Assembly: GCF_018977255.1 (NCBI RefSeq)
Contig: NW_024704742.1
Span: 118,050,001-118,114,000 of the forward strand
Origin: Callorhinchus milii
Lineage: Eukaryota
Direction: 5' to 3'
Length of the DNA stretch: 64,000 nucleotides
Shown here: positions 4,080 to 62,984 of the stretch, one piece after another
Numbering within the stretch: position 1 is the stretch's first letter
How the letters are laid out: each line of letters starts with the position of its first letter
Translations under genes and position numbers: made by a program
Notes under the pieces: generated by a model
What the model was told of the DNA's origin: nothing
The model's database searches: none
Seen by the model: only the letters and a program-made list of their open reading frames with translations

Positions 4080-4233
4080 TCACTCCTGAGACAGCACAGA
4101 TTTTAGTTCCCGCAGCAGCACTGAGCCAATCACAGTTTTTTCCGTGTTTACGCTAAGCTGAACTGTCGACCCTTCCTTCACTTCTATTGTGATCAGCACC
4201 AATGCCCCACTGCTCACAGTTTTAGCTGCAAAC
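4080..4233 (-). CDS. AP3B1: AP3B1 terminal coding exon with TGA stop
   Basis: ttttcag|G TTT GCA...CAG GAG TGA. Encodes RFAAKTVSSGALVLITIEVKEGSTVQLSVNTEKTVIGSVLLRELKSVLSQE*. This C-terminus resembles beta3A (AP3B1) rather than beta3B. Confidence 0.97.
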
Positions 4234-14307: not shown

Positions 14308-15912
14308 AGAACATAAGAATTAGGAGCAGGCCATTCGGCCCCTGTAGCCTGCCCCAGCATTCAATAAGATCATGGCTGATCTATTCTAACTCCACCTACC
14401 CGCCTTATCCCCATATCCCTTAATCCCTTTATCCACAAGAAATCTATCAATCTCAGTCTTGGATATGTGGAGTCCTGTAGCTCAGTGGTTAGAGCACTCG
14501 CTTTGCAAGTGAGAGACCTGAGTTCAATTCCAGGCAGAGGTCGAAACCTTGGGCAAGTTTCCTTACTCCACACAGAGCCTAATAATAATCCCTCCAAAAC
14601 CAAAAACAATAATAAATTGGTCATTTTCAATCTACGACTGTTTGTGGGACATTGCTGTGCGCAATTGGCTGCCGCGTTCGCCCACAAATATACAGTCAAT
14701 TCACTTTACAGTCTATTCTGTGAAGCGCTTTGGGACGTCCTCCCGACGTGAAAAGCGCTATATCAAATGCAAGGATTATTATTATTATTATTATATGTTC
14801 AAGGACTGAGCATCTACAGCACTTTGGGGTAGAGAATTCCATATATAAGTTTTTTCTCAACTCAGTGCGAAAGGGCTTACCCCTAATTTTAAGACTGTGA
14901 CCCCTAGTTATAGTTTCTCCAAACAGGGGAAAAAGTCTCCCACTATCTATTCTGTCATGCCCCTTAATAAACTTATAGGTCACCTCTCATTCTTCTTTTT
15001 ATTCTATATTCTGGAGAATATAGGCCTAAATTGCTCAACCTATCCTCATAACGCATCCCCCTCAACCCTGGTACCAACCTAGTGAATCTACGTTGTACCC
15101 CCTCCAAGGCGAGTACATCCTTTCTTAAATAGGGAGATCAAAACTGCACACAATACTCTAGGTGCGGTCTCATCAGGGCCCTATACAGTTGAGGCAAGCC
15201 TTCCCTACTCTTATATTCTAACCCTTTTGTAACAAGTGCCAACATACCGTTTGCCTTCCTAATTGCTTGCTGTACCTGCAAACTAACTTTTTGTGACTGG
15301 TGTACAAGGACACCCAAATCCCTCTGAACGCTAACACTATCTAGTCTCTCCCCTTCTAAAAAATAATCTGCTCTACTGTTATTGCCACCGAGGTGGATGA
15401 CCTCACACTTCCCTACATTATACTTCATCTGCCACCTATTTGGCCACTCACCTAACCTATCTATATCTCGTTGCATTTTTTTAATGTTTACTCAGTGTTT
15501 ACTCTCCCTCTTAGTTTAGTGTCATCCGCAAATTTGGATATATTAAGTTTGATGTCCCCATCTAGATTGTTGATGTAGAATGTAAATAGTTGAGGCCCAA
15601 GCACGGATCCTTGTGGCACTCCACTAGTCTCATCCCGCCAATCTGAGAAGGACCCATTAACCCTACTCTTTGTTTTCATCCCATTAGCCATTCTTGAATC
15701 CATGCTGATATATTCCGCTTAATTCCATGGGCCCTAATCTTGTGAATCAACCTTTTATGCGGCACCTAATCGAATGCCTTTTCGAAATCTAAATACACTA
15801 CATCCACTGTTTCCCTCCTATCTAATCTACTTGATATGTCCTCAAAAAAATCTAAAAGATTTGTTAAGCATGACTTCCCTTTTGTAAAGCCATGTTGACT
15901 CTGTCTAATCAT
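14308..15912 (-). mobile_element. 5'-truncated, degenerate CR1 LINE (RT C-terminus and 3' end), interrupted by a SINE
   Basis: RT motifs QHGFTKGKSCLTNLL, VYLDFEKAFD, GVPQGSVLGP, KFADDTKL and RPHLEYCVQF, broken by stops and frameshifts. Confidence 0.93.
14469..14792 (+). mobile_element. Full-length young tRNA-SINE, short variant, inserted in the CR1
   Basis: A box TAGCTCAGTGG, B box GTTCAATTCC, (TTA)n tail; TSD ATATGT at 14463-14468 and 14793-14798. Confidence 0.95.
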
Positions 15913-16315
15913 ATTGTGATATTCATATTCAGTGTTATATCCTGAAGACAGACAGACATCACATACTTGGTGTATGATGACATCCATATTGAAAGTTTAG
16001 GAAGTGATAGCTGGGATAAAAGTCAATATAACAGTGTTCATATAACATCATAAACTGAGATGCATTACGGCTTTTATATTAATTTCAGTATATTATGCTA
16101 TTATTATATTGTACAGTACAAACTGACATTTATTTAGCCATTTTTAATAAAATGTACAATTCATGTTTTATAATTTATTAATACCAACATTACTGGGTTA
16201 TTTCATTGCATGCCTCAGCACCTAAAAATATGGTAAATATGATTTTGTTAATGTTCCCAAAGTATTAATACCTATATTGTAATCAATTGCCAAGGACATA
16301 TATGGTCAGGCAGCA

Positions 16316-16879
16316 GCATAAAACACTGGTTAGGCCTCAGCTAGAATACTGCGCCCAGTTCTGGGCACCACACTATAGGAAGGATGTTAAGGCATTGGAA
16401 AGGATGCAGAGGAGATTTACAAGAATGGTACCAGGCATGTGGGACCTTTATTATGAGGAAAGGCTAGAGATGCTGGGATTATTCTCATTGGAGCAGAGAA
16501 GGTTACAAGGAGACCTAATAGAGGTCTTCAAAATCATGAGGGGATTTGATAGGTTAGAAAGGGAAAAACTGTTTCCACTGGTGGGTGTGTCACAGATTCA
16601 AAATAGTATCTAAAAGAAGCAGAGGGGAGGTGAGAAGAAATGTTTTCACGCAGCGAGGTGTTCGAATCTGGAACGCATTGCCTGAAAGGGTGGTCGAGGC
16701 CGATTCGATAACTACTTTTAAAAATGCGGTGGACGGATATTTGAGGAGGACGGGTTTGCAGGGTTATGGGGAAAGGGCTGGGGAGTGGGATTGACATTAA
16801 TTGCTCTATTCAAAAAGCCGGTACAGACTCGATGGGCCGAATGGCCTCTTTTTGTGCTGTACGATTCTATGATTCTATG
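16316..16879 (+). mobile_element. CR1 LINE 3' fragment
   Basis: Encodes VRPQLEYCAQFWAPHYRKD...LFSLEQRRLQGDLIEVFKI and ends in the tail (GATTCTAT)2. Confidence 0.92.
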
Positions 16880-17231: not shown

Positions 17232-17370
17232 CTGTGAACATTATCCTGGCTCGAAGGTACAACCCCAAGGTTTGACACGTTCACTAGCTTCTGCACAATT
17301 GCTTGTCGAGAGGAATTCTGTGGTGCGCACGTGATGCTTGTAGAATTTTCATTCATTCCTGACAGTTTTC
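17232..17370 (-). CDS. AP3B1: AP3B1 coding exon (about human exon 26)
   Basis: tttgcag|GA AAA...CAC AG|gtaact. 139 nt, phase 1 to 2. Encodes GKLSGMNENSTSITCAPQNSSRQAIVQKLVNVSNLGVVPSSQDNVH. Confidence 0.96.
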
Positions 17371-27507: not shown

Positions 27508-27605
27508 CTTGTTCTTTCCTGAAATCTTTCTCGGATGTGGTGACCGGTAGCAGCAGCTCTCCCACCGGAGGTTGGATGGCGACACTGAACTGATCATTTT
27601 GTGTG
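27508..27605 (-). CDS. AP3B1: AP3B1 coding exon (about human exon 25)
   Basis: tttcag|C ACA...CAA G|gtgagg. 98 nt, phase 2 to 1. Encodes [33 protein letters not shown]. Confidence 0.96.
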
Positions 27606-32674: not shown

Positions 32675-32759
32675 CACAAGTGGAAGTTGGCAGCCTGCGT
32701 GGAATCACAGAAGTCAATTCCCATTGAAACCGTCTTAGATTCTCCAACATTAAGGCAAT
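32675..32759 (-). CDS. AP3B1: AP3B1 coding exon (about human exon 24)
   Basis: ttttag|AT TGC...TTG TG|gtaaga. 85 nt, phase 1 to 2. Encodes DCLNVGESKTVSMGIDFCDSTQAANFHL. Confidence 0.96.
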
Positions 32760-33242
32760 CTAAAACAGAAAGCAGTGTGGATTGAAGTTTGCAAATACAC
32801 AAGTGGGAGATATGGTAGTTTCTTTGCTTTCCTAATCTTGACAATATTGAATCAAAGACAACAGTTAACCCTTCAACATCCATAATTTGAAATCTATCCT
32901 TGGAGGCGACAATTATCAGGTGGGCTGTGATAATTATCACTGCTAATAACAAACCCATCGCTGAAAAATGTGGTTGAGTTTAGAACAAGACCGTTACAGA
33001 TATGATTCCGACTCAACTCGAAAGGTTGGCCCCCAACTGCCTGCAGGGACCTTCGGGTTTGTCACCATAGAATTGCTGGGTAATAGAATATTGGTCCAGC
33101 TCTTAATGTTTTTGTTGAGACAGTAGCCTGTGATGAAATTGGGGGAGCAGGTCAGACCCATGACTTGTCTTTAGAAAGGACAAAGATGGACATCAGAGGG
33201 CAGGGTTATTTTTATTCACCTATCAGTACTCATTGAAAGGCA

Positions 33243-33561
33243 TTATAATAATAATAATAATGCATTTGATATAGTGCTTTTCACGTCGGGAGGACGTCCC
33301 AAAGCGCTTCACAGAACACACTGTAAAGTGAATTGACTGTATATTTGTGGGCGAACGCGGCAGCCAATTGCGCACAGCAATGTCCCACAAACAGTCGTAG
33401 ATTGAAAATGACCAATTTATTATTGTTTTTGGTTTTGGAGGGATTATTATTAGGCTCTGTGTGGAGTAAGGAAACTTGCCCAAGGTTTCGCCCTGCCTGG
33501 AATTGAACTCAGGTCTCTCGCTTGCAAAGCGAGTGCTCTAACCATTGAGCTACAGGACTCC
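33243..33561 (-). mobile_element. Full-length young tRNA-SINE
   Basis: Near-identical reverse complement of 14469-14792, with short flanking CATTA repeats. Confidence 0.95.
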
Positions 33562-33710
33562 ATTAACTGATAGCTCGTCCCACACAGGGAATGCATGGCA
33601 AATAAAGATTAGGGGCTTCTTATTCTCAAAGAGAAGAAAGGCTAGAAGCTCAATATCAGATTCATGAGAGGGAGCACCACAGCCCATTATATTTACACTC
33701 TTGTATACGA

Positions 33711-34281
33711 CAGTAAAACTCACATAAGGACCATAACATTTAATATGACTTACGCAAAGTCCGAGTTGCAGGCAAACAGTATAAATCGTATAAAACCTGA
33801 TTTAATCAATAATCCACACTGCACAAGCGTAATTCAATGCGGCCAGTAAGTATGCATGCAATGCTTCGTCACTGCAGCCAGTAACTGTGCATGCGGTGAC
33901 CGGGCAAGATAGCATTTCCCGCGATTCAATGCATCTTCGCCTTTGCTGTATGCGCATTTACCACAAGCATTGGAATCGCAAGAAATGATGTTCTTCTGCA
34001 ATGTCGACGGATCAAGACTATGTTTTCCGCAATTCAATGTAGCCGGCCAGTAAGTGTGCATGTGTCGAGGGGTCAGGACATCATTTCCCGCGATTCAATG
34101 TAGCCAGTAAGTGCGGGAGTAATGGAGTGTAGGGGAGTGGCAATATGAGTTAGGAGGTGATTAATACAAGAAATACAAAGAAATCTCAGTCATTTTGATA
34201 CGAACTGAATTGGACTTGGGTGAATGTACTACTCAAGTGATTATACGATTTACAAAGATATGACATATGTGAGTTTAACTG
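33711..34281. mobile_element. Putative pogo/Tigger-like MITE
   Basis: 16-bp TIRs CAGTAAAACTCACATA and CAGTTAAACTCACATA (1 mismatch); TA on the right flank; internal CpG-rich repeats. Confidence 0.6.
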
Positions 34282-34665
34282 TATTATATATCTATATACA
34301 CACAATTATTTATCCATATAAATTAGCTATTGAAGAGCAAGCTTGAGACAAAAAAAAGTGTACAATAGATATACAAAACGCAAATTATATGTGCTGGACA
34401 GGAGCAAAGAAAAAAATTAATGGGGATGGACCAGGGTGTGGAGGGGGGAGAGAGGGGAAAGTCTATTGACGATAAACAAGGAGCTACTTAGTGGAGCAAG
34501 GAGATTCTTTCGAGGGAGAAAAAATAAGGTCGAGTCAACAAATGCAGAAATCAGCAAGCGTGAGAAACTGCCAGGAATGAAGTTTAGAAAACAATTCATA
34601 TTTGGAACAGAAAAATGAAGAAAAAAAAAAAAATTACGTTTGAATTACTTGCTATTTTTCAGTAC

Positions 34666-34895
34666 CTAGCTTGTGGAAGTCGTGGATCTGCATTCCTGGT
34701 GCGTTTTCGTTCTCCTATTTCGATGTTGGTTATTTCTTTGTCAGAGGTGTTAGTTAGCGTGATCTGAACAGACACCATTTTTGAGCTGTAAATGCATGGC
34801 TGACGTGGAAAATGATACTGTGCCCCAAGGCCTTTACCAGACATACGATGGAGCAGTTCGAACGATTTTGAAGGAACAAATACTGGAGTAGTGAC
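34666..34895 (-). CDS. AP3B1: AP3B1 ear-domain exon (about human exon 23), with an apparent frameshift at ~34703
   Basis: ctacag|GTC ACT...CTA G|gtactg. Encodes VTTPVFVPSKSFELLHRMSGKGLGAQYHFPRQPCIYSSKMVSVQITLTNTSDKEITNIEIGERK, then APGMQIHDFHKL in a shifted frame. Length is 230 nt but the flanking exon phases need 3n+1. Confidence 0.93.
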
Positions 34896-35555
34896 CTGTA
34901 GGTAGAGGTGGAAACAAACATTTACATAAGTTCAGGCAGAAGCACATAGTTTAAAGAAAGAAATCTTGTTCTATATCACTTCAATTCATGTTTGTTTGGT
35001 ATTATCAGGTAAGTTATATTATGTGTTACTTTGGTTTCTCCAAACCAGTTACAGTAAATAATTATGCATTTATAATTACTAGAACTAGACCATTTTTGTT
35101 AGTTCATAATACTCTTATCTCTACTTTTATGTTTGTCTCTTGAATAGAATCAAGCGTAGTCAGTCAATTCTGCCTATTTTTTATGCAACAAATGGAAGAA
35201 TATTCACAAGATTAGTTCAGATGAAGAAGGCCCATTTGACCTAATTCTTCCAAAAAAACGACATCAAAACATCAAGAGTTAAATGAGTCCAGCATTTTAG
35301 CCTTCGTAGTCATTTTCTCTACACCCATTTGCTGTGAATCCCAAACTAAGGTGAACAAGTTTACCAATCCATGAAAATTGCACCGTAGCACTGCTCTAAA
35401 TAATCTGATTGTACAAAATATTTTCCAAAGAAACTAGTTTAAAATTAAGCATAAACCGACACATTTACCAATTGCCCTAAATGTTACCCTTTGTGCTTTC
35501 AAACAAAATTTTTCAAAGCAAATCTCAGTTTCAGATTTTTGCCAATGGAGATGGA

Positions 35556-35918
35556 AATAATAATAATCTGTACATTTGATACAGTGCCTTATCACGTCTT
35601 CGAGACATCTCACAGAAGATACTGTAAAGTGAATTGACTATATTTTTGTGACAAACACAGCAGCCAATTCAGCACAGCAGTGTCCCACAAACAGTCATGG
35701 ATTGAGTGACCAAATTATTATTATTATTAATTTTGAAGGGATTATTAGCCCCTGGAAAGCGATCCGCCAATTGATTAAGGACCAGGCTCCTCCTTAGTGC
35801 TAGGTAAACAGAGACGAGTGGAGTAAGAACATTTGCCCAATGTTTCGCCCTGCCGGGAATCGACCTAGGTCTTCTCGCTTGTGAGCCAAGTGCTCGAAAC
35901 ACTAAGGTACAGGACGCC
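35556..35918 (-). mobile_element. tRNA-SINE, long variant
   Basis: Head, extra internal segment, core and tail on the minus strand. Confidence 0.88.
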
Positions 35919-45420: not shown

Positions 45421-46684
45421 ATTAAAAAATGCCAATTCTCCCTAGTCATCAAAAAATTATAGCTGAGGTGACTGATCATAGTTTTGGCCACAGATTCCAT
45501 TGGACTCCCCAGTAAATGTGATTCCAGTGAAATTCTGCTGAAAAACAGGGATGTTGGCTTAGACAACAGTTCACAGCTGGGAACACAATTAGCCAATGAT
45601 ATAGCGATGAAGTTGGATGGCATCTGTTTCAAGCAGACAGCTTGGGTACAGATTCTCAATACTGTATGTAGTATAATGCAAATCACACAACAAATTTGTG
45701 TGAAATCACCATGATATTTCTCATATATGAGCAATATGGAATGTTTTCCATTGACACAAAAAAATGTAACTAACTTCTCATCAGTCACCAGCAAAGTGCT
45801 AGTGGAAAACCCCCACTGTGAATGCAGCTGTGAATGTAGCAACTGACACCCAATAAATGTTGCTCAGCTTTCCAATATAGACAATGCCAGGAAATAAGCT
45901 TATTTTACACAATATAGGCAAGGCTTTATGCATTTTCTCAAGTGTCACTATGACAACGACTGGAGCCTGCTCCTATAATTCCTCATTATACCACCACAGA
46001 ACTGAAATCTTAAGATCCTGAGTATTGTCATCAAAGAAAACCTACACATAAATACCCAATATTAGTTTATTGTTGATTAATAAGTAAAACTAGACACAGT
46101 GGAGAGCCAGTCATCTGAAATAGTGAGACCAGGCCATTGTGAATAAATTAACATATTATAAGCACTCCCAAGACACGGTGCTATATAAATGTAAGATGTT
46201 GTACTTAAATACAAATTTTGTCAGCACACAAAATACAATTTGGTTACAATGCTAATATTCTTTTATGAAGCACTTAAACTGTCACATGAGCAGGGTTAAC
46301 AGGAGCTGAATGGGAGGATTCCCTACCCCTAGTGACTAGGTCCTTGAAAGAGTCGTTGCTTCACAGCTTCGGCGCCTTCCAAAAGCCTCAAGTGCACCTT
46401 ATCAGGGTGTGTGCAGGTGCACACTGTTTTAATGGAAAAGTCCCAAAAAACGTGTGGACAATCTATGGGCAGTGGAAGGAATGTACCGTAAACAATGGAA
46501 TGTTTTTTGTATCAGGAGAAAAGGAAAACTTGTAACAGAAGATGTTGTTTGTTTTGGATTTCTGTTGAACCAAATATTATATTTAAAAATAAGTATATAT
46601 TTTTAAAAAACGTTGCTCATTCCTCTCCTACTACTCCCTTCACAATCCTCTCCAATTGGGTTTCTGTGCTGCTTACAGCAAAAA

Positions 46685-47779
46685 AAACTGCTACGGTCAA
46701 AGTGACAAATGACATTAAGTCCATCTGTGACCAAGGCTTCCCCTGCCTCCTCGACCTCTCTGTTGCCTTTGGTACCATGGACCATTCCATCCTCCTCCAC
46801 CGCCTCTCCTCTCACCTCAACTTTCAAGGTTCTGTCCTTGAATGGTTCAGGTCTTATCTCTCACACTGTCACCAATTTGTCTCCACCAACTGTTTCTCTT
46901 CCAGCCCCTGTACTCTTTTGTGTGTTGTTCCTCAGGGCTCTGTCCTTGGTCCCCTCCTCTTCAACCTCTACGTGCTCCCTCTTGTTGACATCATCCGCCG
47001 ACATGGAGTCAACTTACACATGTACGTGGACGACACCCAACTCTATCTCTGCCTCCACCCTCGATTCCAGGACAACTGACATCCTGACAGACTGTCTGTC
47101 TGACATCAAGTCTTGGACGAGAGTCAACTTTCTACAGCTGGATATCAGCAAGACTGAGGCTCTCCTGATCGGCTCCTGTCAGCGCCTCCGCACCTCAGGC
47201 ACTGGCAGCATCAGCATCCACGGTTGCACACTCCACCTCACCAAGCCAGTCAGGAATCTGGGCGCCTTGATCGACCCTCAACTGTCCTTTCCTCCCTCAT
47301 ATCGATGTCATGACCCACTCAGCCTTCCCCCACCTCTGCAACATACCCCCACTCCACCGCTGCCTCATCCCTCAGGCTGCCGAAACCCTTATACCTGCAT
47401 TCGTCACCTCAAGGCTCGAATACGGAAACTCCCTCCTTGTCGACCTCCCCAACTCTTCCCTCCACAAGCTGCAGATCATCCAGAACTCTGCAGCTGGTGT
47501 CCTCTCCCGCACTAGGCTCCATGACCCCATCACCCCCCACCCTTGCCAGCTCCACTGGCTCCCAATCTCTCAGAGCATAGAATTCAAAATCCTCGTCCTC
47601 ACCTTCACGGCCCTCCACAGCCTTGGCATCCTTTTTGACCATGCCTTCAGCCGCCCTCCTACTCCCTCATCCCAACCCTGCACCCCTAATGCTTGGGTCC
47701 TGATCCCTGACCGTTCAGTGCCTTAGAGCATCCTCCCGACGTGAAAGGCGCTTTACAAATGTAATTTTGTTGTTGTTGT
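46685..47779 (+). mobile_element. 5'-truncated, internally deleted L2 LINE (RT domain to 3' end)
   Basis: Motifs LLDLSVAFGTMDH, VPQGSVLGPLLFNLY, YVDDTQLY and LHWLPISQSIEFKIL; (TTG)n tail. Confidence 0.93.
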
Positions 47780-57521: not shown

Positions 57522-57631
57522 ATCAATGATAGGAGATGTACTGGAAAGCGATAATCCTTCCAACTCAGCTGCTAAACTTGGAGATATCACCACTGGTTTA
57601 GGAAGGGCTACTGGTGCTGATACGTCGCTAA
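57522..57631 (-). CDS. AP3B1: AP3B1 coding exon (about human exon 22)
   Basis: ttttgcag|TT AGC...ATT GAT|gtaggt. 110 nt, phase 1 to 0. Encodes FSDVSAPVALPKPVVISPSLAAELEGLSLSSTSPIID. Confidence 0.92.
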
Positions 57632-58000: not shown

Positions 58001-58076
58001 AGTCAAGCAAATCCAACAGTGAAACTTCCTGTTTAGTGGAAGCCTTGACCTGTAACACAGTTTTCTTCTCTTCCTT
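58001..58076 (-). CDS. AP3B1: AP3B1 coding exon with the clathrin-box motif (about human exon 21)
   Basis: ttaacag|AAG GAA...GAC T|gtaagt. 76 nt, phase 0 to 1. Encodes KEEKKTVLQVKASTKQEVSLLDLLD, matching the beta3A SLLDLD motif. Confidence 0.92.
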
Positions 58077-62830: not shown

Positions 62831-62984
62831 CTGTCGTTTTACTACGTTTTCTGGCTCAGAGTCACTCTCAGATGCAGATTCTGAACTTTCTTCTGAACTT
62901 TCCTCTGATTCAGAAGAAGTTGCAGCTTTTGTCTTTTTGGATTTAGTTTCAGGTTGTATCCCATTTTGTGAGTCATTGTTTTCA
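62831..62984 (-). CDS. AP3B1: AP3B1 coding exon, acidic Ser/Glu hinge (about human exon 20)
   Basis: Acceptor ctccag|T GAA AAC, donor CGA CAG|gtagga. 154 nt, phase 2 to 0. Encodes ENNDSQNG...SSESEESSEESSESASESDSEPENVVKRQ. Confidence 0.85.

Follow-up and report, generated by a model that had tools for sequence, protein, structure and literature searches.

The window analysed in this study is a stretch of 64,000 nt from the genome of the elephant shark (Callorhinchus milii), a species which is a standard outgroup for the gene history of jawed vertebrates. It carries, on the minus strand, eight of the 27 exons that make up AP3B1 in the assembly as a whole (G000). As predicted, the gene was recognisable as AP3B1 from its matches to C. 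milii AP-3 beta-1 records and from its Pfam domains, and on this sequence evidence it is an ordinary orthologue, encoding the beta-3A subunit of the AP-3 adaptor. Among the best 120 of 310 matches, the first 64 residues of exon 23 were 95-100% identical to C. milii AP-3 beta-1 records, their identity to shark proteins reached 91%, and the named matches were AP-3 beta or beta-1. Exons 20 (62831-62984, 154 nt), 21 (58001-58076, 76 nt), 25 (27508-27605, 98 nt) and 26 (17232-17370, 139 nt) were intact, as was the coding part of exon 27, which includes the natural stop (4080-4233). Exon 22 (57522-57631, 110 nt) is joined by splicing to position 34895 of exon 23 (34666-34895), which is 230 nt long in the window and 232 nt long in the sequencing runs described below, and which is followed by exon 24 (32675-32759, 85 nt). 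Exon 23 encodes the first part of the ear domain and belongs to the Pfam family AP3B1_C (E 1.3e-31).

The annotated protein P0005 (1088 residues) was reproduced in full by the assembly, with 1085 residues read directly and three as split codons. The sole departure was at a break in exon 23, where four window bases were passed over. The 26 remaining exons matched P0005 with no break and no decay, and the seven other exons in the window, described as clean in the original prediction, indeed chained in phase and were identical to this protein. Adaptin_N, AP3B1_C and AP3B1_C_2 were found in P0005 above the Pfam cut-offs, and a match to the SEEEED hinge fell under its cut-off (22.6 vs 28.7 bits). 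Exon 23 is single-copy, with one match in the assembly, and a second or processed copy was ruled out on this basis. A second, more divergent gene was located on the minus strand at G000:C22:9457819-9511537 (loci L006, L007, L010, L011, L019, L020, L025, L026, L029, L031 and L036). This gene is probably the AP3B2 paralog. Its counterpart of exon 23 is open, has the full length and encodes two residues between Lys and Pro-Gly.

On recomputation, the phases and length of exon 23 and the lone C at 34703 were exactly as first reported. The exon, read from 34895 to 34666, has AG/GT ends, and its 230 nt correspond to 3n+2. Translation enters it in phase 0 and leaves it in phase 2, and exon 24 requires phase 1. 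The translation gives GERK up to the lone C and then, in another frame, APGMQIHDFHKL, the conserved frame resuming one base after this C. The break corresponds to two missing bases (AA on the plus strand, TT in the coding sense) between 34702 and 34703, with which the codon would be Leu. The four bases at 34700-34703, which are those passed over by all ten C. milii proteins (K and then P), make up a 6-nt Leu-Ala stretch together with the two missing bases. A 2-nt AC repeat flanks this stretch, and it is inside the stretch that the window lacks its two bases. As the break sits in a real, conserved coding exon (AP3B1_C), it is not a chance pattern.

In the version written in the window, the protein terminates at residue 934 (1088 in the annotated model) after a foreign tail of 15 residues. 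The phase chain confirmed that the premature stop lies inside exon 24 and that exon skipping fails to restore the frame; the stop is 315 nt upstream of the last exon junction. Dropping either exon 23 or exons 23 and 24 together leaves the frame closed. Three AG sites occur between 32800 and 32700, but not one of them could serve as an alternative acceptor for phase 2. The proposed phase-1 cryptic donor at 34837-34838 on the minus strand does exist and is in frame, and if used it would give a 58-nt exon and an in-frame product of 1032 residues.

Four sequencing runs from the species (X1, X3, X5 and X8; four of the 24 listed, from three studies and at most four samples) were aligned to positions 34130-35550. 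X1 and X3 belong to one study and cover the introns evenly, and are therefore of genomic type. X5 and X8 come from two other studies and carry only the guessed label 'RNA?', no listed run being recorded as RNA; both were treated as spliced on the grounds that their contigs continue into exons 22 and 24. The original prediction had held that two extra bases in reads or cDNA would point to an artefact, and this was the outcome. AA was inserted behind 34702 on the plus strand in all four runs, in one contig each, with the insert depth equal to the total depth (11/11 in X1, 6.43/6.43 in X3, 170.3/170.3 in X5 and 28.6/28.6 in X8). The suggestion that two nucleotides of a Leu codon were missing was thus correct: with the two extra bases the lone C becomes part of a Leu codon, the peptide reads K-L-A-P-G, and exon 23 measures 232 nt (3n+1), a phase which fits exon 24.

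The contigs of X5 and X8 span exactly 34666-34895 in 232 letters. Their loose ends at 34666 are identical, letter for letter, to the plus strand at 32730-32759 (exon 24), and those at 34895 to the plus strand from 57522 (exon 22). This identity indicates that X5 and X8 are spliced 22-23-24 at canonical sites and in frame, with the normal donor at 34666 in use. Both spliced contigs run through the cryptic donor at 34838, so that its use was not seen, and none of the listed loose ends falls at this site; the listing left out a further 132 loose ends and 412 pieces, and contigs drop minor forms. The intact allele is thus present in three studies, with four samples at most, and the frame break is a property of the letters of the assembly, not of the four runs examined. 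Neither the 2-nt-short window allele nor a 6-nt deletion was seen in the contigs of any of the four runs; as contigs drop rare variants, these runs, none of which is known to derive from the assembled animal, demonstrate the intact allele and not the absence of other alleles. In X6, X7, X9, X10 and X11 the word share was 0.29, as in X8, with expected values of 0.30 without the window allele and 0.35 with it; this gap amounts to only about three sampled words and was not counted as evidence.

A loss of AP3B1 across the species, or a fixed frameshift overcome through the donor at 34838, ribosomal frameshifting or RNA editing, would be in keeping with the in-frame cryptic donor and with the presence of a probable AP3B2 paralog on G000:C22. 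With the two bases present both in the genomic-type runs X1 and X3 and in the spliced contigs, however, there is nothing to rescue; moreover, the normal donor at 34666 is used and the other 26 exons show no decay. The whole group of explanations is accordingly given almost no credence, and species-wide loss is refuted, barring mislabelling of the species of all four runs. Such mislabelling is argued against for X1 by its match to the window, without substitution, over 1421 bases including introns.

The four same-species runs all contradicted the assembly and restored the conserved frame. Loss of function was not borne out: the break was seen in none of the four runs, there was no further decay in 26 exons, and an intact spliced transcript was present. 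Of the two origins first put forward for the break, an assembly error or a recent loss-of-function allele, the error was upheld by the two extra bases in four of four runs, and the loss-of-function allele is left as an improbable private variant of the assembled animal. It is very probable that the frameshift is an assembly artefact of one kind or another. The AP3B1 gene of the elephant shark is most likely intact, with the frameshift confined to the assembly consensus.

Against the window, X1 showed no substitution over the 1421 bases and eight gap letters in about three indels, and X3 showed one substitution and the same indels as X1. Besides the AA insertion, both runs had one extra A behind 34202, where an A run is shortened in the window, and about five letters fewer within 34608-34636, near the 13-A run at 34621-34633 (the latter taken from record lengths). 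The single-base difference in X3 lies at 34909, 14 nt upstream of the acceptor of exon 23 and within its pyrimidine tract, and X5 has one at 34543 (one contig, depth 3.7). The contigs of X1, X3 and X5 also contained joints skipping about 70 nt near 34166-34239, which are probably other copies of a repeat.

The pattern in X1, of few indels and no substitution, fits an indel-prone consensus, with the reservation that it comprises about three events, one of them deduced from record lengths; the two minor indels could be ordinary polymorphisms. It bears both on the blend of two alleles described below and on a plain slip of the consensus, in which the assembled animal was homozygous for the intact allele and two bases were lost in base-calling or polishing. 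Such a slip explains the run data (two bases in four of four runs) as well as the blend does, and in addition to the two further indels, one in a shortened A run, it can draw on indel frameshifts being described as common in long-read assemblies. The usual homopolymer slip, however, removes one base, and the loss of a whole TT pair is atypical. It also leaves unexplained why ten of ten annotated proteins deviate at the same codon under titles unflagged as corrected; the short proteins would then have to be a separate error or the product of a pipeline bridging a frameshift. A plain slip is therefore regarded as possible, though unlikely.

The spacing at this site was measured between two fixed anchors, both of which were found in 119 of 120 proteins. 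The full spacing was present in 104 of the 119, among them each of the 18 named records of sharks and rays that were measured, and also, by eye, in P0018, which misses one anchor. Five proteins, from four eels and a bonefish (P0042, P0060, P0061, P0071 and P0084), were one residue short, and in these the shorter ear loop is also rewritten. Leu and Ala were absent from all ten annotated C. milii AP3B1 proteins, nine of which were two residues short and the tenth eight short. An acceptor shifted inwards by 18 nt would fit the length of the tenth. An in-frame AG at 32741, 18 nt inside exon 24, is a putative acceptor that fits the six-residue-shorter model P0007. In the predicted structure of the shark protein P0011, the Leu-Ala equivalents (913-914) belong to the five residues that connect strand 903-912 to strand 918-920. 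Both would thus sit in a short loop joining two beta-strands of the ear domain (pLDDT about 67); the model is weak overall (mean pLDDT 50), and only residues 888-964, mostly at about 58-70, were used. No solved structure matched the read-through peptide of exon 23 at E up to 1.

Among the short C. milii records, the two RefSeq titles seen carried no 'LOW QUALITY' label, and one of the proteins is identical to a UniProt record. NCBI is described as marking frameshift-corrected models as low quality (PMC12906968; bioRxiv 10.1101/2021.07.16.452324). The unlabelled titles thus make it probable that the DNA behind both proteins is in frame, i.e. 6 nt short. P0006 (RefSeq isoform X2, XP_007890265.1) repeats 46 residues of exon 19 (residues 743-788; L018:1513-1659), and no second copy of this repeat was present in the loci searched in the assembly. 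This suggests that the C. milii protein models were built on letters other than those of G000. In a cluster look-up of six of the ten C. milii proteins, each cluster had one member and no transcript-derived variant, and a search among short proteins for either allele gave four proteins, 66-72% identical, none of which was from C. milii as judged by identity. A minor allele or an error is the probable source of the public C. milii AP3B1 protein sequences.

Three states thus coincide at this site: the runs have the full length, the window lacks 2 nt, and the ten C. milii proteins lack two residues. Two independent deviations at a single spot call for a common cause, and a blend of two alleles in a heterozygous animal is the simplest one. 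In the assembled animal, a full-length allele would have been paired with one from which an in-frame deletion of 6 nt had removed Leu-Ala, and a single unphased consensus would have kept four of the six bases, producing a hybrid, 2 nt short, that exists on neither chromosome. The reading frame would be kept in each of the true alleles, and the 6-nt deletion would be harmless. Merged-haplotype errors, mosaic haplotypes in polished patches and indel frameshifts have been described for long-read assemblies (PMC5632298; bioRxiv 10.1101/2021.07.16.452324). The full-length allele was seen as DNA, and the 6-nt-short allele is deduced from the protein records alone; a pipeline that skipped four bases would yield the same short C. 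milii protein, which counts against the blend. On balance, the blend of two alleles is the somewhat favoured explanation.

A real but rare null allele would account for the letters of the window as they stand. The assembled animal would carry the 2-nt deletion, most likely in the heterozygous state, the assembler would have kept that haplotype, and the transcript, with its premature stop, would probably be removed by nonsense-mediated decay. Contigs drop rare alleles, decay would hide the allele in RNA, and another animal could carry it; were the annotated proteins due to a skip of four bases, the break would be common to a second sequence as well. As C-terminal frameshifts of AP3B1 are reported as recessive alleles of Hermansky-Pudlak syndrome type 2 in humans, carriers would be viable (PMC5870397). 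The allele was nevertheless found in none of the four runs, two of which are of genomic type and hence blind to decay. A four-base skip would also be an odd repair where one base suffices, and the RefSeq titles were unflagged. In a conserved gene, besides, null alleles are much rarer than sequence errors. We therefore consider it improbable that the assembled animal carried such an allele. It is just as doubtful that the 2-nt truncation of the ear is a null of the Hermansky-Pudlak-2 type segregating at low frequency in this chimaera, possibly at a deletion-prone spot which also yields the Leu-Ala deletion.

About 18% of the window matched elsewhere in the window. These matches (33236-33568, 35554-35918, 15138-16613 and 46492-47726) comprise numerous copies of a short interspersed repeat, together with reverse-transcriptase-like fragments in the introns, and we take them to be LINE and SINE elements. 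A cluster of short, diverged direct repeats at 33828-34121 lies between inverted arms of 23 nt (33704-33726 and 34266-34288, 87%), and the segment 33704-34288 is possibly a small non-autonomous transposon.

The gene in the window is the same as the vertebrate AP3B1 of records XP_007890264.1, XP_007890265.1 and UniProt A0A4W3KEW6, with 27 exons and the domains Adaptin_N, AP3B1_C and AP3B1_C_2. These three records are without Leu-Ala in the ear loop, whereas the runs have both residues and the window corresponds to neither version. The commonly expressed AP3B1 of the elephant shark should, from the sequence of the runs, be 1090 residues long and not 1088, and the assembly and the annotated proteins both differ from this allele. 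An automated screen could wrongly score AP3B1 as lost from this assembly, so that the result has curation value only; if the null allele were true, it would amount to one animal identified as a carrier, a result of modest interest. The literature listings searched contained nothing on AP3B1 in Callorhinchus or on this locus.

The pearl mouse is a comparison system for AP3B1. Also comparable to the present case are the false frameshifts described for other assemblies (Korlach et al. 2017, PMC5632298; Merfin, bioRxiv 10.1101/2021.07.16.452324), in which, likewise, an isolated small indel in an otherwise perfect gene is gone in independent data. Unlike the merged-haplotype errors as published there, the blend proposed here is deduced from the three states that meet at a single site and not from the assembly's own reads. 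If real, the window allele would truncate the ear domain in the same manner as the AP3B1 frameshifts reported in human Hermansky-Pudlak syndrome type 2 (PMC5870397; e.g. c.2944delC). The human alleles in that report, however, were confirmed in patients, with the tested parents heterozygous, whereas the window allele was seen in none of four independent runs.
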